A stretch of DNA of 64,000 nucleotides from Eledone cirrhosa (GCA_964016885.1 CAXHJY010001642.1:1-64000), one strand, 5' to 3'. Shown: positions 165 to 60,561, counted from the first letter of the stretch. Program-made: numbers and translations. The notes: generated by a model from the sequence alone, not told the origin.

Positions 165-3100
165 TGTAGTTTTCGTGTGATTCAACCAATAAACACAGCA
201 GTTTACCGACTAAAAAAAATAATTTTTGTCAATAACATTTACACCTAACGGCCGATTTCCTTCAAATTCGGAACACACATTCATTATCTTCCCGACTTCA
301 TTTTGGATTCAGTACATTTTGTCTAGTGCACCCACTGGACGAGATATAACAAATAAGAAAAGCCGCATCGTTATAACGCCTCCAGTTTGCGACTGCATCC
401 TACCTTTCCCCTTCACTGGAAGTCCACGCTACATGCATGAGAGAACTCAGGATGCGATGAAATATGTACGTCATTACGGCAGGCCTGATCTGTTTATAAC
501 TTTCACTTGTAATCCTAAATGGAAGGAGATTGAGGCAGAACTCTTCCTCGGTCAACAGGTCAAAGACAGACATGACCTCCTAGCCCGAGTCTTTCGACTG
601 AAGTTAATCAACCTTATGGACCTCATCAAGAAAGGGAAAGTCTTTCGACCTGTACAATGTCACATGTACACAATCGAATGGCAGAAAAGGGGCCTTCCAC
701 ATGATCACATTCTGATTTGGTTATCAACCAAGATAAATTCCAATGACATTGACAAGATAATCTCTGCAGAGCTTCCCGACCCATCCAGCGACAAAGACCT
801 CTACGATATAGTGAAGACAAACATGGTACATAGTCCATGTGGACGTGGCTTCAATCTAAGCTCGCCCTGTTTGAAAGACAATGTGTGCACCAAAAGGTTT
901 CCCAGGAAGTTCCTTATGTAAACCCAGGCTGGTATTGATGGATATCCATTATACAGACGACGGAAACCAGAAGATGGCGGTTTTACAGCAATGGATTGTT
1001 CTGTACTGCCCACTCATATCCAAAACATTCAGCGCCCAAATCAATGTCGAGTTTTGCAATTTTGTCAAGTCTATCAAGTACATATGTAAGTATGTAAATA
1101 AGGGTACCGATGCTGCTATGTTTGGCCTTCAACAGGAAAACAGCCGGGATGGAGTAACACAGTACCAGGTCGGACGTTGCATGAGCAGAAATGGGGCTTT
1201 CTGGCGTATTTTCGGCTTCTCTTTACACCAAAGGCACCCTTCTATCGAGCAGCTTGCATTACACATGGAAAATGGTCAAAGGGTTTACTTCCCCGATTCC
1301 AATGCTGCTTAGTTGGCAGAGGAACCAAGGCAAACCACACTTACTGCCTTCTTCAAGCTTTGTCAAGTCGATCCATTCGCCCAAACCTTGCTATATCCTC
1401 AGGTGCCGTCCTACTATACATGGAATAAAAGAAAATGGGTTCTAAGAAAGGCAGGTCAAGCTGTTGATGGACATCCTGGCATTAAGTTTGACAATTGCTT
1501 TGGGAGAGTTTACACAGTGCATCCCAGCCATCACGAGTGGTTCTATCTCATCTGCTACTGCATGAGGTCAGATGACCACGATCTTTCAAGCACCTAAGAA
1601 CTGTTGACGGGTATGTGTGTGCCACATACAGGGAAGCATACTTTAAACATAGTATGTTAGAAGATGGTGCACAGTGGGATGCAACTTTGTCAGAGGCTGC
1701 TGTATCACAAACACCAAAATGTCTCAGGGCTTTATTTGCATTATTGTTGCAAACATGTGAAATGTGTAATCCTTCGTATTTGTGGTTCAAGTACAGAGAT
1801 GATCTTTCTGAGGATTTTAAACATCTGGCACAACTGCAGTACCCTGACATGGAAGGTACTAGCGATAAAGTCTACAACAGAGCAGTCATTGATATAGAAG
1901 ACAGGATTGTTTCACTCGGTGGAAATGATTTGCCCACATATGGCCTGCCCCAAACATTCCGAACAGGGTCGAACGTACATCCTACAGCCATTCCACGAGA
2001 AACATCCTACGGCATTGATGCTCTTTCCCAATATGTTATCGACACTGAACCACAACTACTTCCGGACCAACAACGGGCTTACAGTACTATTGTCGACAAT
2101 GTGCGCCACCAAAAAGGAGGTATCTTCTTCCTGGATGCACATGCAGGGACAGGACAAACTTTTGTAACGAAGCTCCTCCTTGTAAAAGTTCGGCTGCATA
2201 GGGATATCGCGGTAGCTGTTGCCTCCTCTGGGATTGCTGCTACTTTGCTGCCCGGTGGCAGGACAGAGCACTCGACTTTTAAACTCCCCCTGAATTTAAC
2301 AACATCTGAAACACCTGCAACATCAGTAAAAGCTCAGACCAGGGTCAAGTCCTCAAACGGTGTCATCTCACTGTGTGGGGTGAGTGCACCGTGGCCCACA
2401 AAGGAGCTCTGGAAGCAGTAGATAGAACCCTTAAAGATATCAGAGATTGTCATGCTCCAATGGGAGGTGTAACGCTTCTGCTGTCTGGTGATTTCAGACA
2501 GACACTTCTCATCATTTCCAAAGGCACCAGGGCAGATGAAGTCCAGGCATGCCTTAAATCCTCTCCATTGTGGTGACACCTTACGACCCTGACTCTTACC
2601 ACTAACATGAGAGCTCAACTACATGGTGACCACATGTCTGCCAGGTTTGCACAGGACATTTTGACACTTGGCGATGGCAAGATGCCTCTCGACGTTGCCG
2701 GAGAAATGGACGTCTGGCCATTTTGTACCATTGTTAATTCTGTGGAGGAGCTGAAAGACCAAGTGCTTCCGAACTTGACAGAAAATTACTAAAGTCACAA
2801 TTGGCTATGCGAAAGAGCAATAACGGCTCCAAAAAACATTGCTGCTAATAAACTCAACGAACAGTTAATGCTGTCTCTTCCAGGAAATCTTCACACTTAC
2901 AAGTCTGTCAACACAATCCCGGATCACAATGAAGTGGTGAACTATCCTCCAGAATTTCTCAATTCATTGGAGGCTCCCGGACTACCTCCCTACATATTAG
3001 GACTTAAAGTTGGAACTCCTGTAATGCTGCTTAGGAATCTAGATCCGCCAAGACTGTGCAATGGGACACGACTGGTGGTAAAGAAAATGATGTCACATGT

Positions 3101-4663
3101 TATCCAGGCAACAATTCTTTCTAGATGTGGAAAAGGTGATGACGTCTTCATTCCGAGAATCCCTCTCATTCCATCGGGAGCAGAAATTCCCTTTTCATTC
3201 AGACGTCTGCAATTTTCAATTCGTGTCAGCTTTGCATTGCCCATTAATAAATCCCAAGGTCAGACCCTGTCCGTGGTCAGACTTCTCTTGGAAAGGACAT
3301 ATTTCTCACACGGACAATTGTATGTTGGGTATTCCCGAATGGTAAGCAGAGTAAACCTTTTCGCATTTGCACGGCGCGGAAAAACAAAACATTGTTTACA
3401 ACGAGGTGTTATAATAAAAAAAATACGAGGAGGTAGGTAAGTATTTACCTTTTATTGCACAACCCTGATTATTTCTTATTTCCCTTGCTAACCAAAATCA
3501 GTTTCTTTTGTCTTACGTAAAAGCCGTCAAAGAAGAGATGCTACTGATTCGTAGTTATCTGTATGTAATGAATAAAATAGATGACTCAATGGCTACTGAC
3601 TTATTCCATCCTAGCACTTCTTCTCATTTGGGTTTTTCCTACCAGTCTCGAGCAACGCCGGGATTCACCTTCGTACGAACTCGTTACATTTTCAAATTTG
3701 TGTCTACTGAGCCCTCTACAAGAGAAAACCCGACTTAAAAAAATCATTTGTGTAAATAACTTCTACAGTTTACATCCGATTTCCTTCAAATTTGGAACAA
3801 ACATGCATTATGCTCCCGACTTTATTTTGGACTCATAACATTTTGTTTAGTGCCCCCCTCCCTGGACTAGAAAAAACGAATCGAAAAAATCCGCATCGTT
3901 ATAACGCCTACAGTTTGCGACCGATTTCCTTCAAATTTGGAACTATGCCTCATGTACTAAACATTATTTTGGACTAACCGATTTTTCGAGTTGTTATCTA
4001 ATTCGGGCCCTGTGAGAGAAAAACTAAATAAAAAAAAAGTATCGATGTCAATATCTACACATACAGATATGTGATGTGAGACGGGTGTGTGTGAATGTAT
4101 GTCTGTGTGTGTCTGTCTTAGTATATGTATGTGAGTGTATGTGAGAGTGTGTGTGAGTGTATGTGAGAGTGTATATGTGTGTGAGTGTGTGTGTGATAAT
4201 TTTTATTTTAACGTTAGGCCTCAGAGAATTAAACACACACATATATATAGCGTCAGTAAGTTGCATACACATTATCTTCAAACACAGACAATTAAACACA
4301 CATCTACACATACATATACATATGTGGTGACTGACAAGTTATAGGTTTGCGTGAATGTATGTCTGTGTGTGTCTGTCTTAGTATATGTATATGAGAGTGT
4401 ATGTGTGTGAGTGTGTAGCAACAATTTCTTCATTTGGACAGCACCAAAAAATTACACAATGAATATTGTTTACCCTAAGGTGGTTCAAGATTGACAGATT
4501 TCCATTTCTAAATTCTATTATCATTACAATTTTGATATTTAAAAAAATAAAGTATAGATATTTTGAAATAATTATGAGGAAAAAAAGCATATCTTCATAT
4601 TTATTGTTTACTAATCTGAATAAGAACAGCAGTAACCGGGGCAACGCCGGGTAATTCAGCTAA
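165..4663 (+). mobile_element. Degenerate Helitron (5' boundary approximate)
   Basis: Contains the RepHel remnant. Subrepeats CCGATTTCCTTCAAAT occur at ~252, ~3776 and ~3921. The 3' end has hairpin CCGG-GGCAACG-CCGG (4636-4650) followed by CTAA (CTRR) at 4660-4663. Confidence 0.75.
380..3440 (+). pseudogene. Helitron Rep (HUH endonuclease)/PIF1-like helicase, frameshifted and with stops
   Basis: Rep motifs FTGSPRYM, PDLFITFTCNPKW, EWQKRGLPHxHIL and YICKYVNKG. Helicase motifs FFLDAHAGTGQTF (Walker A K>Q), VASSGIAATLLPGGRT, GDFRQ, NKSQGQ and FSHGQLYV. Spread over at least 7 ORF pieces. Confidence 0.95.
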
Positions 4664-5943: not shown

Positions 5944-6244
5944 AAATTTCGTATTTCTAAAGAAACACGGTTTTAGGAAGCCGTAGCTATGCAAACACCG
6001 GGGCCAACGCCCTCTGGTGGTGTCCAGCCATCTGGTTTACACAGACGAGAAAACTATATATTCTCAACTGTTTTCAAGTCCAGCAGTTGCAAGCGGGGGG
6101 CGTCCTGAGGAAGGCCAGTCCAGCCTGAAATGCATAGACGGGTTGTCCCCTTTGCTTCTGCTGGACACCACCAGAGAGCGTTAGCCCCGGTGTTGGCATA
6201 GCTACGGCTTCCTAAAATCGTGTTTCTTTAGAAATACGAAATTT
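5944..6244 (+). mobile_element. Short HHR-bearing PLE-like insert with an inverted copy of its 3' end
   Basis: Inverted arms of ~85 bp (5944-6028 / 6160-6244) surround a hammerhead; (TA)n follows. Confidence 0.8.
6101..6140 (+). ncRNA. Minimal type I hammerhead ribozyme
   Basis: CGUC-CUGAGGA-AGGC/CAGUCCA/GCCU-GAAA-UGCA-UA^GACG. Palindromic stem III (AUGCAU). Confidence 0.9.
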
Positions 6245-6434: not shown

Positions 6435-6893
6435 TATATATATATATTAATCAACTACCATCACGAGTGCTAATAATATGCGAATCACCATGTCCGTTTC
6501 AAGGTACGACTCTCAGTAATAGAGTGCATAAGCTCTTCGATTACATATTTCCTTGAGGTTATTTAGATAATATACATACATTCTGATGAAAAACTAACTA
6601 GGTTTGAAAATAGATTAACGGTATTTATCATATTTTCAATTTACAATGAAATGCGTATATATGCAAAATATACGGATTTCATTGTAAATTGAAAATATGA
6701 TAAATACCGTTAATCTATTTTCAAACCTAGTTAGTTTTTCATCAGAATGTATGTATATTATCTAAATAACCTCAAGGAAATATGTAATCGAAGGGCTTAT
6801 GCACTCTATTACTGAGAGTCGTACCTTGAAACGGACATGGTGATTCGCATATTATTAGCACTCGTGATGGTAGTTGATTAATATATATATATA
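6435..6893. repeat. Near-perfect ~460-bp palindrome between (TA)n tracts, with convergent HHR motifs (6576-6624 +, 6704-6752 -)
   Basis: The arms are reverse complements, so the ORF track shows the same peptide on both strands. Motif CUGAUGA-AAAAC..GUUU-GAAA-AUAGAU-UA; stem I has 2 mismatches. Confidence 0.85.
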
Positions 6894-8009: not shown

Positions 8010-8665
8010 GGAAAAAATGAAACGAAATTTCATTTCCCACTCTTAGTACGGCTGTTATTTAAATATAAGTATGTACACATACATACATATATGTATACAG
8101 ACGTACAGTAGTATGTATATATATATACATACATGAACACATATATATATATGTACGTATGGATTCACCGAACATTTATTATAATGCTCGGTGTGTTTGT
8201 AAACAAACATCCCGCATTAAGCCGTAGTGTCTAGCAACCATCGTTGCTCGTTTGTTCAACGTACTAAGAGTGGGAAATGAAATTTCGTTTCATTTTTTCC
8301 GTTTATCGTTTTCGGTGCACCCGGCCGATTAACCCACTCGATATGCAAATTGGACTACTGAGCCGTTAATATGCATAAGGTAAGTATATACGTTCAACAA
8401 TCTGGCAGGAAGGTATACGTTGGTGAAGATAGCTAATAAGCTTGAAACTAGTACAGCGTTCCTTTGTCAGTGTTGAACAAACGAGCAACGATGGTTGCTA
8501 GACACTACGGCTTAATACGGGATGTTTGTTTACAAACACACCGAGCATTATAATAAATGTTCGGTGAATCCATATGTACATATATATATGTGTGCATGTA
8601 TGTATATATATATACATACTACTGTACGTCTGTATACATATATGTATGTACGTGTACATACTTAT
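8006..8665. mobile_element. Retrozyme-like family C insert (inverted plus head-to-tail); HHR at 8418-8458 has C3G
   Basis: Homologous to 9239-10225, 26847-28150 and 56975-57470. Core reads GUGAAGA. Confidence 0.8.
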
Positions 8666-9120: not shown

Positions 9121-9477
9121 TATATATATATTGTTATACAAGTATAACAATATTTGTTTCGACACGCGATTTCATATCAAAAACCTTGCAAAACAAATTC
9201 ATTGCCGTCGTTATATATATATATATATATATATATATAAGTATGCATGTATACGTACATACATATATGTATACAGACGTACAGTAGCATGCACATATAT
9301 ATATATATATACATATATACATACATATGCATACAGGTACACATACATATATGCACGTATCAGTTTAGCGGCGCTAACGTCGCTTTGTTCGTTTGTAAAC
9401 AAACTGAACAGCCTGAATTTATGCCATACGGTGTTAAGGCAACCACGTCACCTTTTTGTTCAACACTGACACAGGAA

Positions 9478-9518
9478 CGATGTACTAGTTTCAAGCTTGT
9501 TAGCTATCATCAGCACCG
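9478..9518 (-). ncRNA. Minimal hammerhead (family C)
   Basis: Reverse complement of 9881-9921. Confidence 0.85.
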
Positions 9519-9880
9519 TTTACCCATCTGCCAGATAGTTGAACGTTCGAAAGTATACACTTTACTTATGAAAATTAACGGCTGAGCAGCCTAATTTGCA
9601 TATTGAGTGAGTTAAATCGGTCAGGCATACCGAAAACGATAAATTGAAACCGTTTTCGGTATGCCTGACCGATTTAACGTATACATGCATACTTACATTT
9701 AAGTAAGTGCCATACTAAGAGTGAGAAATGAAATTTCGTTTTCATTTTGTTTCAATTTATCGTTTTCGGTATGCCTGACCGATTTAACTCACTCAATATG
9801 CAAATTAGGCTGCTCAGCCGTTAATTTTCATAAGTAAAGTGTATACTTTCGAACGTTCAACTATCTGGCAGATGGGTAAA

Positions 9881-9921
9881 CGGTGCTGATGATAGCTAAC
9901 AAGCTTGAAACTAGTACATCG
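9881..9921 (+). ncRNA. Minimal hammerhead (family C)
   Basis: CGGUG-CUGAUGA-U AGCU/AACA/AGCU U-GAAA-CUAG-UA^CAUCG. Confidence 0.85.
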
Positions 9922-10320
9922 TTCCTGTGTCAGTGTTGAACAAAAAGGTGACGTGGTTGCCTTAACACCGTATGGCATAAATTCAGGCTGTTCAGTTTGT
10001 TTACAAACGAACAAAGCGACGTTAGCGCCGCTAAACTGATACGTGCATATATGTATGTGTACCTGTATGCATATGTATGTATATATGTATATATATATAT
10101 ATATGTGCATGCTACTGTACGTCTGTATACATATATGTATGTACGTATACATGCATACTTACATTTAAGTAAGTGCCATACTAAGAGTGAGAAATGAAAT
10201 TTCGTTTTCATTTTGTTTCAATTTATATATATATATATATATATATACCCCTGGCTTAGTAAATATGTAATGAGTCATGATTTTCCAACAAAGAAATGGT
10301 AGTATTTATTTACATGTATA

Positions 10321-13954: not shown

Positions 13955-14346
13955 GATATTAACAAATGGAAACTATATTTATAAAACCATATTTATTTTA
14001 TTATACATATTTCAAGGACACCACGTTAAATTATGGTGTGCTTTCATCAGACAAAATACAATATAGATCAGTTTATTAAATAAATATTGACATACCCTTA
14101 AAAAATGCAACCATTGGAAGCTCCCAGATTTATTTATAAAACTGATCTATATTGTATTTTGTCTGATGAAAGCACACCATAATTTAACGTGGTGTCCTTG
14201 AAATATATATAATAAAATAAATATGGTTTTATAAATATAGTTTCCATTTGTTAATATCGTATGTTTACTCCAAATGCTTGTTGAGTGCTTTATATTAGTT
14301 ATAAAAATATTTGCTTGTTGTATCCCAACAATTTAAATAGAACTTT

Positions 14347-14870: not shown

Positions 14871-18540
<3,670 letters not shown>

Positions 18541-21299: not shown

Positions 21300-21452
21300 G
21301 AGGCTTTGACGCATAGAGTTACGGCCCTTGCCATTCTGAGTTCAAATCCCGCCGAGGGTAACTTTGCCTTTCTTCCTTACGAGGTCGATAAAATAAAGTA
21401 CCAGTAATGCACTGATTAATTGCTGGCCTTGTACCAAAAGTAGAAACAATTA
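21300..21452 (+). mobile_element. tRNA-derived SINE, family S1 (representative copy)
   Basis: B-box-like GAGTTCAAATCCC plus the core CTTTGCCTTTCATCCTTACGGGGTCGATAAAATAAAGTACCAGT (Deu/Nin-domain-like). Other copies near 21840, 28620, 33990, 35062, 36645, 44290, 44620, 45785, 54665 and 59640. Confidence 0.8.
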
Positions 21453-22547
21453 TAGTTTAAGAGGCTGATCATTCCACAGACATGTATACCCTTCCCATAA
21501 TTCTCAGGGAGATTAAGCATGGCGCAATGTATGACATCGATAGCCTTTTGAATTAAAAATATAACTCATTTTTTAAAGCTAAAGAAAAATAAAATAAAAT
21601 GTCTTACCGAAAGGTATACCACTTCACTGGCAATCACACTCTTGACAATCGTGATCCAAATAGCCGAGTCACTAAGCCACGTGCCTACACGGACAGCCAA
21701 TAGAGATACTAAACCCTCACAAATTGATCCATGTTCTATGATACAAATATGTTTGTTTTACAATATTTATATTTATATAAAAACCTTCCACCATAATTTT
21801 ATGTAAGAACCTTTAAATTAGGTTTCAAACAAAAGCTTAATAATTGTTTCTACCTTTGGCACAAGGCCAGCAATTATTCAGTGTATTACTGGTACTTTAT
21901 TTTATCGACCCCGTAAGGATGAAAGGCAAAGTTAACCTCGGCGAAGCTTAATAATGAAGTCTTGATTATTTTCAAAATTGTTTGAAAATCACAGGAGGTG
22001 TCTTTTGTTAGAAATCTCTAAGGGAAAGAGTTAATAATATATCTATATCTAGAAGATAAATCTCTCCTGTCCTGTATATAAACAAGAAACGGGATAGAAC
22101 GTGACAATTGAATATTTTCAACAGCAATATCTACACGAATGGCATTTAATATTTGCTGGTCAAGTTGACTGTGAGGTCAGATTGAACCAGGCAGGGCCAA
22201 ACAGTCAATAGACATTCAAACAAAGAGCACGGCACTACGAAATTATTGTATGATTGTTCAAAACAACGTCGATGTGCAATAGATCTTTCAAATTCAGGTA
22301 TACAATGGAGGTTATTTCGACATTTATTATTCCAAAAGTTTCAATGGTATATTAACGGGGACTTAATAACACGAGTCTATAGAACATCTTATTCAAAACC
22401 ACTGAAGAGTAGATAACAGTAAAGTAGTCTAAAGAACACCTCAGAAGCATCTTTCCATAAGGATATATTCCTAGTCTAGCAACCTAAAGCATTTCTAAAC
22501 ATTTCTATTAACGGGTATTTATTTATTTTTCGTATACTATACAGAAA

Positions 22548-22640
22548 CCCTCTGAAGAGAAACCATTCTAATAACGGTAGTTATATCAATCTATTGACAT
22601 GGTCTCCGATATTCTTTTGGTTTTGAAACTGCAGTAAGGG
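22548..22640 (+). ncRNA. Type I hammerhead with long stem II (family F)
   Basis: CCCU-CUGAAGA-GAAACCA...UGGUUUU-GAAA-CUGCAG-UA^AGGG. Confidence 0.85.
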
Positions 22641-23025
22641 AACTTAGTGAAGCCCCTTGCTTTACGTTGCTTGAATAGATCTCTTGGGAGAGATGCATGT
22701 GAGGTATTCTTTTAGATTACTATACTGTCATCTACCCCTCAGTGATTTTGTGTAAGATGTTCTATAAGTATTTGCTTCTCTGAGTGAGATTATTTTAGCG
22801 ATCACTTTTATTGAGATGTAATGTATATTCCTGATAGACGGTCTATATTGACTGCTGTTTCTAGTGGCAGTTCAGACTCGTCTCTTTGTTCATCAATACA
22901 AATATTTACCTTGTTAGATCTACGCATGCGTGTAGGACCATTTCTTCAACCACGTGGGTTCGATGAAAAGCAGACACACTTATATTATCAGGTATTTATT
23001 TATTTTTCTTATACCATATAGAAAG

Positions 23026-23118
23026 CCCTCTGAAGAGAAACCGTTCTGTTAACGGTAGCCATACCAATCTATTGAAATGGCCTCCGTTATTCTTAGGGCT
23101 TTGAAACTGCAGTAAGGG
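23026..23118 (+). ncRNA. Type I hammerhead (family F, second copy)
   Basis: Same core, stem I and stem III as 22548-22640, 478 bp downstream. Confidence 0.8.
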
Positions 23119-23229
23119 AACTTAGTGAAGTTGTTTGACTAGGAATATATCCCCAGAGAAAGATGCTTGTGAGGTGATCTTTTAGATTAATTTACTGTCA
23201 TCTACTCCTCAGTGGTTTTGTACAGGATG

Positions 23230-23306
<77 letters not shown>

Positions 23307-25318: not shown

Positions 25319-26311
25319 TTTCTCTTTCTCTTAATTTCGAGTATATTTTTTTGACCGGCCACCTTCCTGGTGGCAAGGTTGTAAAAGAAAAGAAATTGTC
25401 ATCCCTTGAATCGCAAGAATGTTTTGCAAAATTTGAAGGTGCCAGCTATCGCAGCCATTTGCAGACTATGAATTAGGGAGCTGCGCTTTTTGTCCGCAAA
25501 TCCAAGTTCAGTCATACTTTGGTCCAAGCGGGTTGGTATATAACCCGTAGCACCAATAATGATGGGTATGAAGCTAAAGGTGTATCTTGGATACTGGATT
25601 TGTAAACTCCTCATCAATGGTCCGTAGATGTCCTCCTTCTCCTGTATTTTTCTGACAACGTTTATATCAAGTGGGCAGCTGATCTCCACAACAGAACACG
25701 TTTTCAATGTGTGGTCCCAAACTACAATATCAGGCCGGTTGTGCTTTAATTTGGTGGCAGTTTTTATTTTCAGGTTCCACCAGTATTCCTTAGTTCCATC
25801 TGTCTCAATATATTCTTCCTCGTTTGTTGTTAATTTTGTTTTCCGAAGTGCGTTCCAGATGGTTCTAGCTATCCCATCGGGTCTCATGGGGAGGTAGTAG
25901 CGAGATGACATTCTTTCGAAGCTGGCAACAATGTGGCTTACATCCTCGATCTTTGTTTTACATAGCCTACATTTATTGTCAGCTGCTGGCCCTCCTCTTT
26001 TGTGCAGCAGATATTTGGTAGGGAGTTCTTGTTCCTGTATTGCATAGAGATATCCCTCAAGGTGTGATGTCATAAACTTGTCGGAACTCCATACCAGGCT
26101 TTTTGAGTGGTTTATCCCCTCTATGGTCTGTGTTTTACGCCTCAAGTATCCATGCACAACCTTTTCTGTAAATTGGTCAATTTTCTTATCTTGTTTGAAC
26201 ATTGAATAGGATCTTCCGATTTCTCTGGGTGAGAGATTTATATCAGGCTTTATTCCATATCTCTCCTCCAGATCAGTCGCTATTCTAATGATATTTCTTT
26301 TTTCATGCTCA
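25319..26311 (-). mobile_element. 5'-truncated R4/Dong-like (REL endonuclease) non-LTR retrotransposon; C-terminal frame 25399-26311 is open
   Basis: AIQEQEL, zinc knuckle CRLCKTKIEDVSHIV, YLPMRPD (similar to RHD), NRPDIVVWD..VVEISCP..KEDIY, PIIIGATG. Flanked by (TATG)n on both sides. Confidence 0.85.
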
Positions 26312-26416
26312 GTATGTATGTATGTATGTATGTATGTATGTATGTATGTATGTATGTATGTATGTATGTATGTATGTATGTATGTATGTATGTATGTATG
26401 TATACATATGTATGTC

Positions 26417-26845
26417 AGGTCACCAGTTGGTGCTACTGGTAACATGTATCCCAGTACAACCTGTCCCATGGTTGGGTCGTTGGCGACTAAACTGGTAACC
26501 CCACCAAGGTTTCTTGGTGAGGAGGGTGACTTTGGACATCCTGCAAGACTAAAAACAAAACCTGTCAAAGGGCCAAGGAGCTCTTAAGATTCAATAGCCA
26601 TCCAAAATCACCGGGAGAGATGACCCCTTAGCCTTTGTTAAGGCAGAATTCTAGGAGAAGGAAAACTCTGATATAACACCTGCAAACCTGATGGTATCCA
26701 ATGATGTTGACTTGTTCTTCTTTTTGGTAAATATCATATTGGTTAAGAGAGTGGGACTGGCTTTGTGCAGTGCCTTTGCTCACTATAAAAGCTTCACGGC
26801 ACAGGCATTGATTTATATCTGGAGATCTCTCTGCACTTGTCATCT
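26417..26845 (+). mobile_element. Longest 5' portion of the ZF-bearing element, with a structured leader
   Basis: 26621-26845 is the reverse complement of 5610-5831. Multi-hairpin region at 26419-26530. Confidence 0.6.
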
Positions 26846-26952: not shown

Positions 26953-27461
26953 CATGCACACATATATATATATGTGCGTATCGATTCACCGAACATTTAT
27001 TATAATACTCGGTGTGTTTGTAAACAAACATCCCGAATTAAGCCGTACAGTGTCTAGCAACCATCGTTGCTCATTTGTTCAACACTGACAAAGGAACGCT
27101 GTACTAGTTTCAAGCTTATTAGCTATCGTCAGCAACGTATACCTTCCTTCCAGATGGTTGAACGTCTGAAAGTATATACTTTCCTTATGCATATTAACGG
27201 CTGAGCAGCCTAATTTGCATATCGAGTGAGTTAATCGGCCGGGGTACTCATACTTTCAGACGTTCAACCATCTGGAAGGAAGGTATACGTTGCTGACGAT
27301 AGCTAATTAGTACAGCGTTCCTTTGTCAGTATTGAACAAATGAGCAACGATGGTTGTTAGACAATGTACGGCTTAATTCGGGATGTTTGTTTACAAACAC
27401 ACCGAGCATTATAATAAATGTTCGGCGAATCCATACGTACATATATATATATATGTGAGCA

Positions 27462-27541
<80 letters not shown>

Positions 27542-27960
27542 TACTACTGTGCGTCTGTATACATATATGTATGTACGTATACATATATATATTTAAGTAA
27601 CAGCCGTACTAAGAGTGAGAAATGAAATTTCGTTTCATTTTTTCCGTTTATCATTTTAGGTACCCCGGCCGACTGAAGTCACTCGATATGCAAATTAGGC
27701 TGCTCAGCCGTTAATATGCATAAGGAAAGTATATACTTTCAGACTTCAACCATCTGGCAGGAAGGTATACGTTGCTGACGATAGCTAATAAGCTTGAAAC
27801 TAGTACAGCGTTCCTTTGTCAGTGTTTAACAAATGAGCAAGGATGGTTGCTAGACACTGTACGGCTTAATTCGGGATGTTTGTTTACAAACACACCGAGC
27901 ATTATAATAAATGTTCGGTGAATCCATACGTACATATATATATATATATATGTGTGCATG

Positions 27961-28466: not shown

Positions 28467-28875
28467 TATAATAGTTATTGAGGCGGTTTGTATAATATAA
28501 TTTTATTTTATTTTATCATTCTGTCTGCTTCATGGTTAAATATTTCAAACAAATGTGGTTCTTCAACCCTCGTAATATTAGACACACGATTTACTGTGTT
28601 TCTTACTACATATATTATTATAATTGTTTCTACTTTTGGCACAAGGCCAGCAATTAACCAGTGTATTACTGGTACTTTATTTTATCGACCCCACAAGGAT
28701 GAAAGGCAAAGTTAACCTCGGCGGGATTTGAACTCAGACCGCAAAGGGACGAAACTATGGTGGAAAGCATGGCGTCCGACCCTCTACCGATACTGCCAAT
28801 CCACCAATGCTCAGTATTTATACTTTGAGCTTGTTAATTACAGGGTTTCAGTATGAGTTATTAACTCTAACTTTC

Positions 28876-29953: not shown

Positions 29954-30008
<55 letters not shown>

Positions 30009-30011
30009 GTT

Positions 30012-30500
30012 ATTGCGGTGAATTGGCAGTATCGGTAGAGGGTTGGACGCCAAGCTTTCTAGCATAGTTACGGCCCTTTATGATCTGAGTTCAAATCCCG
30101 CCGAGGTTAACTTTGCCTTTCATCCTTGTGGGGTCGATAAAATAAAGTACCAGTAATACACTGGGATAATGCTGGCCTTGTGCCAAAAAGTAGAAACAAT
30201 TATTATTATTGCGGTGAATTGGCAGTATCGGTAGAGGGTTGGACGACATGCTTTCTAGCATAGTTACGTCCCTTTATGATCTGAGTTCAAATCCCGCCGA
30301 GGTTAACTTTTCCTTTCATCCTTGTGGGGTCGATGAAATAAAGTACCAGTAATACACTCGGATAATACTGACCTTGTGCCAAAAGTCGAAACAATTATTA
30401 TTGGAATGGCAGTATCGGTAGAGCGTCAGACATCATGCTTTGCGGCATAGAGTTATGGCCCTTTACGTTCTGAGTTCAAATCCAGCCGAGGTTAACTTTC
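30012..30500 (+). mobile_element. Three head-to-tail S1 SINE copies after an (ATT)n tract
   Basis: Units start at ~30014, ~30209 and ~30403 and are separated by short ATT tails. Confidence 0.85.
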
Positions 30501-47109: not shown

Positions 47110-47433
47110 TTGGTTAGGAAGTGATGTTACATCCATCACGTAGCCCTGACTTTGCACCATCAGATTACCATTTATTTAGAAGTTTGCAAAATTCTTTGAA
47201 TGGTAAAACTTTCAATAATGATGATGACCTGAAATCACAGTTGCTTCAGTTTTTGGCTGATAAGGACCAGAAGTTGTATGAGCGCGGAATCATGAAGTTG
47301 CCAGAAAGATGGCTAAAGGTCATCGAACAACATGGAAAATATATAATTGCTTAAAGTTCATTCTTTGTATGGAAAAAAAAATGACTTTTATTTCACATTA
47401 AAAAACCGAAATTACTTTCTTGCCAACCCAATA
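47110..47433 (+). mobile_element. Mariner transposase 3' fragment with right TIR
   Basis: LHPSRSPDFAPSDYHLFRSLQNSL...GIMKLPERWLKVIEQHGKYI. TIR ...AATTACTTTCTTGCCAACCCAA-TA. Confidence 0.9.
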
Positions 47434-51524: not shown

Positions 51525-52040
51525 TACTATAGGCACAAGGCCAGGAATTTTGCATGACTGGTATTTTACTTTATCGACCCCATGAAAGACAAAGCTAACC
51601 ACAGAGTAATTATAATAATGGTTTGTTATATAGGCACAAGGCCAGCAATTTTTTGGGGCGGGGAAAGTCGATTAAATCGACCTCAGTACGTTACTGGTAC
51701 ATTATTTTATCGACCCCGTAAGGATGAAAGGCAAAGTTAACCTCGGCGGGATTTGAATGCAGAGCATAAAGGGCCGTAACTCTATGCTGCAAAGTATGGT
51801 GTCCGACTCTCTACCGACACTGCCAATCCACCGCCCGAAGAGTGATTTAATAATTGTTTTTACTTTTGGCACAAGGCCAGCAATTACCCAGTGCATTACT
51901 GGTACTTTATTTTATCGACCCCGTAAGGATGAAAGGCAAAGTTAACCTCGGCGGGATTTGAAATCAGAATGGCAAGGGCCGTAACTCCATATGTCAAAGT
52001 ATGGCGTCCGACCCTCTACCGATACTGCCAATCCACCAAG
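51525..52040 (-). mobile_element. Tandem S1 SINE cluster
   Basis: Three copies of the reverse-complement core. A similar pair lies at 54872-55250. Confidence 0.85.
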
Positions 52041-54666: not shown

Positions 54667-54809
54667 CCGAGGTCAACTTTGCCTTTCATCCTTATGGGGT
54701 CGATAAAATAAAGTACCAGTAATGTACTGGTGAAATGCTGGCCTTGTGCCAAAAGTAGAAACAATTAATAATATTAATAAATGGGAAAATATCTTTATAA
54801 AACCATATT

Positions 54810-54869
54810 TATTTTATTATACGTATTTCAAGGGTACTAATATTTAAGTACGTTTCGTCAGATAAAATA
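54810..54869 (-). ncRNA. Hammerhead (family D variant)
   Basis: UAUUUUAU-CUGACGA-AACGUACU..AGUACCCUU-GAAA-UACGUA-UA^AUAAAAUA. Confidence 0.8.
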
Positions 54870-55323
54870 TAACTGTTTCTACTTTAGGCACAAGGCCAGC
54901 AATTATCCAGTGCATTACTGGTACTTTATTTTATCGACCCCGTAAGGATGAAAGGCAAAGTCAACCTCGGCGGGATTTGAACTCAGATCGTAAAGGGACG
55001 TAACTATGCTGGAAAGCATGGCGGCCGACCCTCTACCGATACTGCCAATCCATAAAATATAATTGTTTCTACTTTTGGCACAAGGCCAGCAATTATTCCA
55101 GTGCATTACTGGTACTTTATTTTATCGACCCCGTAAGGATGAAAGGCAAAGTTAACCTCGGCGGGATTTGAACTTAGATCATAAAGGGAGGTAACTCTAT
55201 GCTTCAAAGCATGGCGTCCGACCCTTACCGATACTGCCAATCCACCGCCAATCCATAAAATATAATAATTGGTGTTAAGATAGTGACATATCTTCATGTG
55301 AACTTAATGGTATAAGTCCAATT

Positions 55324-55615
55324 CATCAAATAATGGTAGTTAAAACGGGAATAAATCACCATAATTATTGCATTATATATATTTCTGTTACATGGTTATT
55401 CATGTGACTTCGTCAGATGCTTACGCAATCATTAGTGCAGTTATGCAATAACTGTGATATGCCGGTGGCCATGCACGTCCATCCAGTAGTGAAGTGGTTC
55501 GGCATCTGACGTAAGCATCTGACGAAGTCACATGAATAACCATGTAACAGAAATACATATAATGCAATAAACAATTATGGTGATTTAATCCCGTCTTAAC
55601 TACCATTATTTGATG
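55324..55615. mobile_element. Fold-back insert with divergent HHRs (55370-55420 -, 55515-55565 +)
   Basis: GCAU-CUGACGA-AGUCACAUG/AAUAAC/CAUGUAACA-GAAA-UAYAUA-UA^AUGC. Arms ~100 bp; (TA)n follows. Confidence 0.85.
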
Positions 55616-55769
55616 CATATATATATATATGTATATCAGATTACAAGTATTAGCAAGCAATATCTATATATGTATAGGACCAGCAATATCATTAAGGCCA
55701 TCTTGGCATCCAACTATGCCCTAGAACTCTGTCCAACTCTGATTATCTGACTATTTCTCATTATTAGAA

Positions 55770-56620: not shown

Positions 56621-56689
56621 TGATTTTTTATGATATCGCACTAACACGTGTCTAAACCATTGAGTGGAAATACAATATTTCAGGTCGTC

Positions 56690-56962
56690 AAGCAATGAGC
56701 ACAGAGCAACGAACAAGCTTCAAAACTCCGTCAAAAGCACTGAGATTGCTGCAGCAAGTGTATGGAGATGAGACGATGTCACGCCCACGTGTTTTTGAGT
56801 GGTGCAAGAGGTTTAAAGAAGGACACGAGGACGTGGAAGATGACCCCAGGAGTGGAAGGCCCTCAACAAACAGGACTGAGGTCAACGTTGAGTGCGTCAG
56901 GCAGATGGTGCGTAGCGATCGTCGGCTGACTGTTCGACTGATGGCAAATGAGCTGGGCATTT
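56690..56962 (+). mobile_element. Mariner transposase N-terminal (HTH) fragment
   Basis: MSTEQR...VYGDETMSRPRVFEWCKRFKEG..VEDDPRSGRP...DRRLTVR.MANELGI. Confidence 0.9.
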
Positions 56963-57468
56963 CTCACTCTTAGTATGGCTGATACCTAAATATAAGTATG
57001 TATACGTACATACATATATGTGTACAGACGCACAGTAGTATGTATATATATATATATACATGCACACATATATATATATGTACGTATGGATTTACCGAAC
57101 ATTTATTAAAATGTTCCGTATGCCCGGCTGACTAACTCACTCGATATGCAAATTAGGCTGCTCAGCCGTTAATATGCATAAGGAAAGTATATACTTTCAG
57201 ACGTTCAATCATCTGACCGAAAGGTATACGATGCTGACGATAGCTAATAAGCTTAAAACTAGTACATCGTTCCTGTGTCAGTGTTGAACAAAAGGGCGAC
57301 GATGGTTGCCGAGCACTGTACGGCGTAATTCGGGCTGTTTGTTTACAAACACACCGAACATTATAATAAATGTTCGGTAAACCCATACGTATATATATAT
57401 ATGTGTGCATGTATGTATATACATACTACTCTAACGTCTGTACACATATATGTATGTACGTATACATA

Positions 57469-59347: not shown

Positions 59348-60561
59348 TGTTTTCGTAAACATACCGTATATTATTCGATGCACAACAGTTACATCCTTAT
59401 ATATATATATATATATGTATATACAGAGCTATGTTGGAGCGAACACGTTAATTATCATTGCTGTGGTATAAGTATGGCCAAATGTATTCGGTCGTTTTTC
59501 TTGGTGTTACACTTTATATTTTTGTGTTTTATCTTAGACGATAATGTTTAGCTTCTCACTCCCTTAACTTCTTTGTGGTTGCCACAAACAACTCGATTTT
59601 ACTTGCTATATGGCGGCTATAACTTCGATTCATACCCACTGGTGGATTGGCAATATTGGTAGAGGGTCGGACGCCATGCTTTGACGCATAGAGTTACGGT
59701 CCTTGCCATTCTGAATTTAAATGCCGCCGAGGTTAACTTTGCCTTTCATCCTTACGGGATCGATAAAATAAAGTACCAGTAATGAACTGGGTAATTGCTG
59801 GCCTTGTGCCAAAAGTAAAAACAATTATTTTATATATATATAAGAAAAACGACCGTCAGTTCTTCCATCACTCGGCCTATGCACGAATATACAAGTATAT
59901 ATAATGAATATCTGTCAATTTCAACGAAGGGTGTTTCAGAACACCCTGTTTATTATATTAACGTTTAAGTAGCTGAACATTCCATAGACCTGTGGGCTGT
60001 TAACGTAATTTTCAGGAGAATTTAGTTCAAAAAAGTGTGAAAAGCCTATCCGACGGGCTGCTAAACAATTTCTGTCTTCTCAATTTCACACACAAGGTTT
60101 GGAATATCGCGAAGATACCATGCATAGCTGTGAAGACAACTCCTTAACAATTTGGATAGTTTTGCCTGTTATATACGGTTTCCAATTCGGGCACTAGGTC
60201 TGCAAGATTGATGTAATGGGAACGTTGATTATATCGAGCCCACTTTTCAGTCTACGGAGGGGGGGGGGGGCTTTTTCTCCATCAACGGCCCTAGTACTAA
60301 TTCTTAAAGCTTGATGCTTATTTTATCGATCATTTTCATCGAGCCGCTAAGTTACGAGACATATACTGAGACACATACACAAACGTAAACCAACACATAG
60401 CACTCATATATATATTAGAAATTTCAGTTGCAACACATTAATCAACCCGAAGATATAGCAGAAGTAGTAGGGACTTGCCCATTGCCCGAGGTGCAACGCA
60501 GTACGACTAAATTCGAATCCACATGTTTCCGAAGTGAGCTCCTTAACCACATACCCATATA

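Follow-up and report, generated by a model that had tools for sequence, protein, structure and literature searches.

Background

The layout of Penelope-like elements (PLEs) is one in which two direct pseudo-LTRs (pLTRs) are combined with a shorter inverted pLTR overlapping a direct one (PMC3846280, PMC8557442, PMC8969392). Their pLTRs keep type I hammerhead ribozymes in which a U-rich 5' flank precedes a short helix I, helix II is long and helix III palindromic, and the published motifs include CCCU/AGGG stems I, GUA triplets and stems II closed by G.U, the last of these in the PLE-type motifs of Lottia and Ixodes (PMC4209133). A second group of relevance here is that of the non-LTR retrozymes, whose repeat units are given as 150-450 (PMC7229834) or 51-972 bp (bioRxiv 10.64898/2026.07.22.740005). 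For cephalopods, the only hammerhead that we met among the matches listed is an unrelated Octopus motif of the Hydra clade in a supplement, and the main text of a paper on O. vulgaris repeats does not mention ribozymes (PMC13282606).

Here we describe a locus in a window of 64,000 nucleotides, by which we mean the whole stretch of DNA that was analyzed, with two hammerhead motifs arranged in tandem behind an inverted repeat arm. A PLE-type origin of this locus is very probable. The matches listed in the literature on Penelope and cephalopod hammerheads and on mollusc retrozymes contained no description of its hammerhead family.

Results

An inverted arm and two direct repeats

The element occupies positions 22380-23231 and is composed of the following parts:

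22380-22491, minus strand: inverted 3'-terminal arm, an inverted pLTR-like piece without a ribozyme (blastn, three-way alignments)
22486-22491, no strand: 6-bp microhomology at the inversion junction, at the end of the inverted arm and equal to spacer positions 22967-22972 (judged by eye)
22499-22766, plus strand: direct copy 1, a 5'-truncated, pseudo-LTR-like unit
22767-22975, plus strand: spacer, single copy in the window (blastn, nhmmer), fold z of -0.5, i.e. no unusual structure
22976-23231, plus strand: direct copy 2, a 3'-terminal pseudo-LTR-like repeat
23232-23298, plus strand: (AC)n microsatellite adjoining the 3' end of copy 2

The direct copies are 82.2% identical over 22499-22761, beyond which the alignment gives copy 1 five extra nucleotides in common with the inverted arm. 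This arm is the counterpart of the 3' part of both direct repeats, with 84.3% identity to copy 2 (22383-22483) and 77.4% to copy 1 (22378-22491; both blastn), and its outer end extends 5 nt past copy 2. The preliminary description of this DNA had listed an inverted piece from 22375 and (CA)n downstream of the hammerheads; both are present, but clean homology begins only near 22380, and that account did not name a PLE insertion. Divergence among the three pieces amounts to 14-18%, and the Jukes-Cantor (JC) distances of the three pairs are alike (0.16, 0.20 and 0.17). The best common word found in the search for a target-site duplication around the element was 4 nt long and lay inside the microsatellite; of a 30-40-nt tail on one element end, 5 nt of extension are recognizable. 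The (AC)n run at the insertion site fits the PLE pattern, but microsatellites are very common in the window. Tandem Repeats Finder called no array over the hammerhead tandem, which comprises 1.5 units.

Ribozyme motifs

Within and between the direct copies, the following ribozyme features were delimited:

22514-22544, plus strand: U-rich tract with a YAG acceptor-like end, 3 nt 5' of stem I (putative function)
22548-22640, plus strand: hammerhead 1, type I, predicted cut after 22636 (descriptor scans, folds)
22559-22624, plus strand: extended stem-loop II of copy 1, a long irregular hairpin of 66 nt, folding z of -3.05 against 200 shuffles
23026-23118, plus strand: hammerhead 2, type I, predicted cut after 23114, with core, stem I and stem III as in hammerhead 1
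22637-23114, plus strand: stretch from one predicted cut to the other, 37.7% GC over 478 nt, delimited by the ends of the GUA triplets

In both copies the motifs follow the order CCCU, CUGAAGA, 66-nt stem-loop, GAAA, palindrome ACUGCAGU, A and AGGG, and CTGAAGAG is found at 22552 and 23030. The GAAA-stem III-AGGG blocks lie at 22625-22640 and 23103-23118. Position 22636 is the last of one GUA triplet and 23114 that of the other, exactly 478 nt further on, which confirms the two predicted same-strand cut sites of the preliminary description. Each copy contains the CUGANGA and GAAA core, the A15.1-U16.1 pair, H17 in a GUA triplet, and an open helix I of 4 bp. Stem III is a perfect 8-nt palindrome suited to a helix III formed in a dimer, and the U-rich 5' flank and short helix I of both copies are traits of PLE-type dimeric hammerheads. 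Stem II, which the preliminary description had missed, is closed in both copies by a G.U pair at 10.1-11.1 and not by G-C; its base comprises 7 bp in hammerhead 1, whereas in hammerhead 2 it comprises 3 bp followed by an A.C mismatch. The stem-loop II of copy 2 has a folding z of -3.01.

Are these motifs genuine, or could they be chance words in an ordinary local duplication and inversion of no ribozyme ancestry? Several observations could be read in the latter sense, since any duplication would double a single chance motif, the thresholds of our descriptor of palindromic type I hammerheads were set so that both copies pass (its four versions gave 9, 4, 7 and 11 hits), and a search of all 64,000 bases at the Rfam gathering score gave no match. 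With E up to 10, the region 22300-23300 gave six chance matches in Rfam, with no ribozyme among them, and the 66-nt stem-loop II is probably the cause of this miss. On the other hand, the window contains 11 motifs by this descriptor, whereas 100 block-wise dinucleotide shuffles gave 0.01 on average and 1 at most; the z of about -3.0 is reached by stem-loop II in both copies, and the layout recurs in the window with other hammerhead families. With up to 3 mismatches allowed, the window contains two occurrences of the 19-mer across the cut site, versus a mean of 0.01 in 100 shuffles. The motifs at 22548 and 23026 are real hammerhead motifs, and a chance origin is barely credible; the models support their classification as dimer-type type I hammerheads. 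In a collection of bacterial and archaeal genomes the same 19-mer had no exact match, as expected for animal DNA.

YAG acceptor-like ends lie 3-4 nt before stem I at 22544 (CAG, copy 1) and 23021 (TAG, copy 2) and rank in the top 2.4% and 1.4%, respectively, of 2819 YAG sites by a simple pyrimidine score. Donor-like sites are found in the spacer at 22768, 22784 and 22818, and together with a YAG acceptor-like site they could represent a PLE 5'-UTR intron. The following were set aside: an alternative hammerhead with AGGG at 23095 as stem I, for which the required GAAA is not preserved in copy 1 (by eye); a 12-codon frame, conserved and with its end at the cut site, which is likely due to chance; and the results of a bacterial promoter and terminator scan, irrelevant for eukaryotic DNA.

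Hammerhead loci and transposon remnants across the window

Ten of the 11 descriptor motifs are located in paired repeats, which form five paired loci of three families; the tandem arrangement of hammerheads is ordinary in this DNA. At 26974-27933 (region to 28150), an inverted arm and two direct arms that are 96-97% identical, with cores 482 nt apart and (TA)n runs, constitute a younger insertion, the middle motif of which (27293) has lost GAAA through a short deletion. The same family is present at 8153-8571, 9353-10230 and 57114-57391. A further hammerhead family, at 14012-14201, 41486-41867 and 54770-54885, consists of head-to-head inverted arms near (TA)n, with arm identity of 97-100% within an insertion and 83-87% between insertions. 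A single descriptor match, at 6105, has a 4-bp stem I, a 4-bp stem II and a palindromic stem III, and no partner was found for it. By eye, we also noted an inverted pair at 55321-55618, both arms of which contain a hammerhead-like motif (55416, minus strand; 55519, plus strand) that failed the descriptor. A near-perfect 433-bp palindrome lies between (TA)n runs at 6448-6880, and each of its arms carries a CUGAUGA core and a hairpin with no clear stem III.

The window is AT-rich and microsatellite-rich and contains remnants of Helitron, mariner-like, non-LTR and PLE elements. The PLE remnant (15457-18071, minus strand) is a broken ORF spread over several frames. It comprises RT-like and GIY-YIG parts together with a stretch rich in asparagine, and its closest named relative is an Octopus vulgaris protein with 58% identity over 67% of the query, which makes it likely that this DNA comes from an octopod. 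A broken Helitron Rep/helicase gene (Pfam Helitron_like_N, PIF1) is located at 223-3440 on the plus strand. The 3' part of a non-LTR retrotransposon ORF, which we take to be R4/Dong-like, lies at 25399-26583 on the minus strand, with zf-RVT under the curated cut-off (Pfam). Mariner-like transposases are represented by a fragment with matched HTH domains (Pfam) at 56656-56973 and, presumably, by a second fragment at 47118-47354. A very abundant repeat of ~190 bp, often in partial tandems, occurs at 21303-21459, 28596-28826, 30003-30499, 51684-52038, 54862-55246, 59640-59835 and other positions, and we presume that it resembles an octopus SINE.

Predicted folding and cleavage at the two sites

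A key issue is whether the two hammerheads could release the 478-nt RNA between them, as the preliminary description had proposed. Fold energies were calculated with ViennaRNA at 37 C, using four transcript boundaries for the double hammerhead; such nearest-neighbour energies omit tertiary contacts, Mg2+ and help from proteins, and the hammerhead of an Anolis PLE requires its protein for cleavage (PMC11167929). The double-hammerhead fold is a nested structure free of pseudoknots, in which each catalytic half is predicted to cut the GUA of the other copy. It is 6-13 kcal/mol more favourable than two monomeric folds, and the earlier proposal that the palindromic stem III works in a dimer is thus borne out in the model; in the free ensemble, the two palindromes pair with a probability of 0.38-0.52. 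At the same time, the free ensemble is lower in energy than the double hammerhead by 11-17 kcal/mol. The two copies are unequal, with pairing probabilities of 0.91-0.95 for the stem II base of copy 1 and 0.0 for that of copy 2, in which the 5' strand of stem I is held by a rival helix:

23022-23029 with 23095-23102, plus strand: rival 8-bp helix holding the stem I 5' strand of copy 2, pair probability 1.0

All eight pairs of this helix can form in copy 2 and six of eight at the same register in copy 1; in the ungapped register, one pair is changed on both sides, from A-U to G-C. With two copies for comparison, the helix may be due to chance or may be a conserved off-switch.

The predicted costs of cleavage are unequal as well. 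Site 23114 would be cut through the catalytic half of copy 1 at 3.5-6.6 kcal/mol, whereas a cut at 22636 in the dimer would cost 10.6-10.8 kcal/mol, the latter needing the catalytic half of copy 2, with its broken stem II and trapped stem I strand. Cleavage at 22636 may still come from the copy 1 monomer, at a cost of 6.8-9.3 kcal/mol, since an intact-looking motif of another hammerhead family in the window also has a monomer cost of 6.6 kcal/mol. For active dimers formed in trans, the energies relative to the free monomers are -4.3 kcal/mol for copy 1 with copy 1, +3.9 for copy 1 with copy 2 and +12.1 for copy 2 with copy 2.

Hammerhead 2 is therefore predicted to misfold, with little 478-nt RNA coming from the present copy, and efficient release of it finds no support in the models; an appreciable release in vivo by this copy is, in our estimate, unlikely. 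It also seems improbable that the locus is transcribed and cut at both sites (at 22636 co-transcriptionally or by a second transcript, at 23114 by the dimer in cis), followed by release and circularization of the 478-nt RNA. The cores, stems I and palindromes are perfect in both copies, the palindromes pair to the extent given above, and copy 1 is a well-formed dimer-type motif, all of which would suit such a course. Moreover, the 478-nt RNA folds better than its shuffles, both as a linear molecule (z of -2.0, 100 shuffles) and as a circle (circular MFE z of -2.3, 60 shuffles; 66% paired), the strongest local signal being stem-loop II, and in coral, mussel and axolotl tandem hammerhead repeats yield circular RNA (PMC7229834). 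To the obstacles presented by the broken and trapped copy 2 and by the energy of the double hammerhead is added the behaviour of related systems: PLE-type dimers cleave weakly in vitro (PMC4209133), one of nine Xenopus retrozyme dimers was cleaved (bioRxiv 10.64898/2026.07.22.740005), and the reads reported for the Anolis PLE include none that end at its hammerhead site (PMC11167929).

Divergence of the copies and age of the probable insertion

Another important point is whether the ribozyme has been preserved by selection since the insertion. Between the direct copies, 0 of 27 positions differ in the core, stem I and stem III, compared with 34 of 213 in the remainder (hypergeometric p of 0.012; 0.024 without one badly aligned block), in agreement with the earlier statement that these parts are kept despite the divergence of the surrounding copies. 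That the core is conserved above its flanks is a claim that stands less firmly in this comparison of two copies, since the p value weakens to 0.08-0.12 after dropping 12 invariant positions, a correction made because the locus was noticed for its two intact cores. The 31-nt identical run around the cut site in both copies has a p of 0.13. Among 31 hammerhead pairs compared, in a structure hand-written from single-copy folds, none is compensated, four are changed on one side and six are broken in one copy. RNAalifold gave an inactive consensus fold and no covariation from the two copies, a comparison in which two sequences have no power.

Pure drift explains the better-conserved core only with some luck, and one may ask whether the divergence predates the insertion. 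The three pieces would then come from RNAs of different active subfamilies joined by template jumps, with the intact cores reflecting selection on the templates. The absence of differences at the 27 core positions would be expected in this case; the pair of the rival helix changed from A-U to G-C on both sides points the same way, as does the other hammerhead family with head-to-head arms, which differs by 13-17% between insertions with its cores kept and has near-identical arms within one insertion. This origin is nevertheless very unlikely: stem-loop II shows no compensatory change and six broken pairs of 31, the change on both sides of the rival-helix pair depends on the placement of a 1-nt gap, and mixed templates are not the rule in the window, since the arms of its other insertions are nearly identical. 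The three equidistant pieces and the 96-100% identity of arms in the younger insertions of the window fit one old insertion followed by drift. The differences between the copies look neutral, and to judge from their sequences the locus is probably a fossil. Half the distance between the pieces is, as a rough estimate that takes the host to be Octopus, near the JC level of 0.09, which was dated to about 25 million years (PMC13282606).

Coding potential of the spacer

These data raise the question of whether the repeated unit was ever a replicating RNA of its own. Alternatively, an autonomous PLE, perhaps of the Neptune type, could have left two 5'-truncated copies in partial tandem together with an inverted arm, in which case 478 nt would mark the truncation point of the downstream copy and would never have been the length of a replicating RNA. 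Heavy 5' truncation and partial tandems that include inverted 5' copies are indeed features of PLE insertions (PMC8557442); the spacer, which shows no unusual structure, contains the longest open frame:

22815-23021, plus strand: open frame of 68 codons, frame-length p of 0.08

This frame carries a PxGFD motif in the spacer, at 22950 and some 75 nt 5' of stem I (p of 0.005, post hoc). Set beside Fig. S2 of PMC8557442, the motif looks to the eye like the terminal part of Neptune-type GIY-YIG endonucleases, although two conserved residues of the endonuclease motif, Glu and Thr, are absent. The same 3' end would be expected for a deletion derivative, and the frame with PxGFD is a lead that suits a short deletion derivative and a truncated autonomous copy alike.

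The protein searches were all blank. Pfam returned no family for any of the nine frames in and beside the element, and the 68-codon frame had no match among 32 candidates of longer proteins, nor among 1.84 billion representatives, in the ESM Atlas or in the PDB. In a tblastn search of the element with 77 proteins, relatives of the other PLE in the window, the best E was 0.11; a profile built from 67 of them, which represents a different PLE group than Neptune, had no positive score in six frames. The RT and GIY-YIG ORF of an autonomous PLE was not found in the element, which has no room for it. Four short motifs of the element are absent from the PLE consensus sequences in the supplement of PMC8557442, and a fifth occurs there twice in an unrelated context. 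Since, in addition, the window contains a second family with a repeat period of about 490 nt, we regard a tandem of truncated autonomous copies as a rather unlikely, if serious, alternative.

Discussion

The locus is assigned to PLEs by its layout and ribozyme type, the searches inside the element having given no homology to PLE proteins. Our preferred explanation, to which we accord slightly better than even chances, is an old insertion of a short non-autonomous PLE derivative (a non-LTR retrozyme in the broad sense), with hammerheads that are predicted to be dimeric and that now would be cut mainly at 23114, yielding little 478-nt RNA. With two hammerhead copies of this family present in the window, at one locus in 64 kb, the repeated unit of ~480 nt is itself what we infer from them.

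Under this explanation, the palindromic stems III of adjacent units in the ancestral RNA would have paired, each catalytic half cutting the GUA of the other unit; RNA of unit length would thereby have been released and could have been circularized by a host ligase. A PLE reverse transcriptase-endonuclease acting in trans would have begun at a point about 117 nt downstream from the cut; a unit of about 480 nt, multimeric or circular, would have been copied one and a half times, and the inverted end piece would then have been added at the 6-bp microhomology. The element does end 117 nt past the cut site; by analogy, this geometry may be compared with reverse transcription in an Anolis PLE, which has an internal start 111-118 nt inside an ORF whose own beginning is at stem II (PMC11167929). 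After insertion, the pieces likely drifted without selection, leaving a copy in which the catalytic half of copy 1 should still be able to cut 23114, and the 22636 cut would require a weak monomer fold or a second transcript.

If our preferred explanation is true, it has little consequence, since the locus would only add to the many decayed PLE-type hammerhead tandems of this genome. Of practical value is the observation that Rfam overlooks PLE-type hammerheads in DNA as dense in them as this, with 11 in 64 kb. More would follow if the family had a fixed unit of ~480 nt and were expressed as circles: non-LTR retrozymes would be extended to cephalopods, and the family could be used to test by what means retrozyme circles escape self-cleavage, a point left open in PMC7229834. 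In its fullest form, this would be an undescribed cephalopod retrozyme family with a ~480-nt circular RNA moved by PLEs, a 66-nt stem-loop II, an off-switch helix between the 3' strand of stem II and the 5' strand of stem I that prevents self-cutting of the circle, and expression continuing from this locus or its siblings, which we consider quite improbable.

Comparison with known systems

The motifs share with the dimeric hammerheads of PLE pseudo-LTRs the type I topology, the 4-bp helix I, the long helix II base, the palindromic helix III, the U-rich 5' flank, the position near the 3' end of the element and the predicted function as dimers. The YAG acceptor-like site just before helix I resembles the intron end in Drosophila virilis Penelope (PMC4209133). 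They differ in their 66-nt stem-loop II, compared with mostly less than 30 nt and at the longest about 53 nt (PLE-X1_sMoe) among the listed PLE hammerheads, and in the G.U instead of the standard G-C at 10.1-11.1; unlike in PLE elements with pseudo-LTR hammerheads, no RT-endonuclease ORF lies between the repeats. As an insertion, the locus is similar to Pen2a_Av and its relatives (PMC3846280; Fig. 2 legend of PMC8557442) in its two direct repeats (256-268 bp), the shorter inverted arm at the 5' side (112 bp), the 6-bp junction overlap and the 3' microsatellite, and is distinguished by the 209 bp between the repeats, a 5-nt tail instead of 30-40 nt, the lack of a clear target-site duplication and pieces diverged by 14-18%.

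With the metazoan non-LTR retrozymes (PMC7229834; bioRxiv 10.64898/2026.07.22.740005), the locus has in common two consecutive type I hammerheads on the same strand, a unit of a few hundred bases with a GC content below 50%, no confirmed coding capacity and a likely mobilization by PLEs, whereas its 1.5 units, inverted arm and helix I of 4 bp, instead of the canonical 6, set it apart. In the predicted 478-nt circle, self-pairing blocks the hammerhead, whereas most metazoan retrozyme circles leave it free (PMC7229834). The double hammerhead of newt and axolotl satellites offers a further parallel, with a weak monomeric helix III and a palindromic loop that gives a long helix in the dimer (PMC7229834); those satellites form long arrays, whereas here one partner of a single 1.5-unit copy is predicted to misfold. 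A retrozyme assignment would hinge on unit length and expression. By the main features of its layout, the locus reads as a PLE-type insertion and not as an autonomous PLE. Its 66-nt stem-loop II is a minor variant feature among PLE and non-LTR retrozyme hammerheads.
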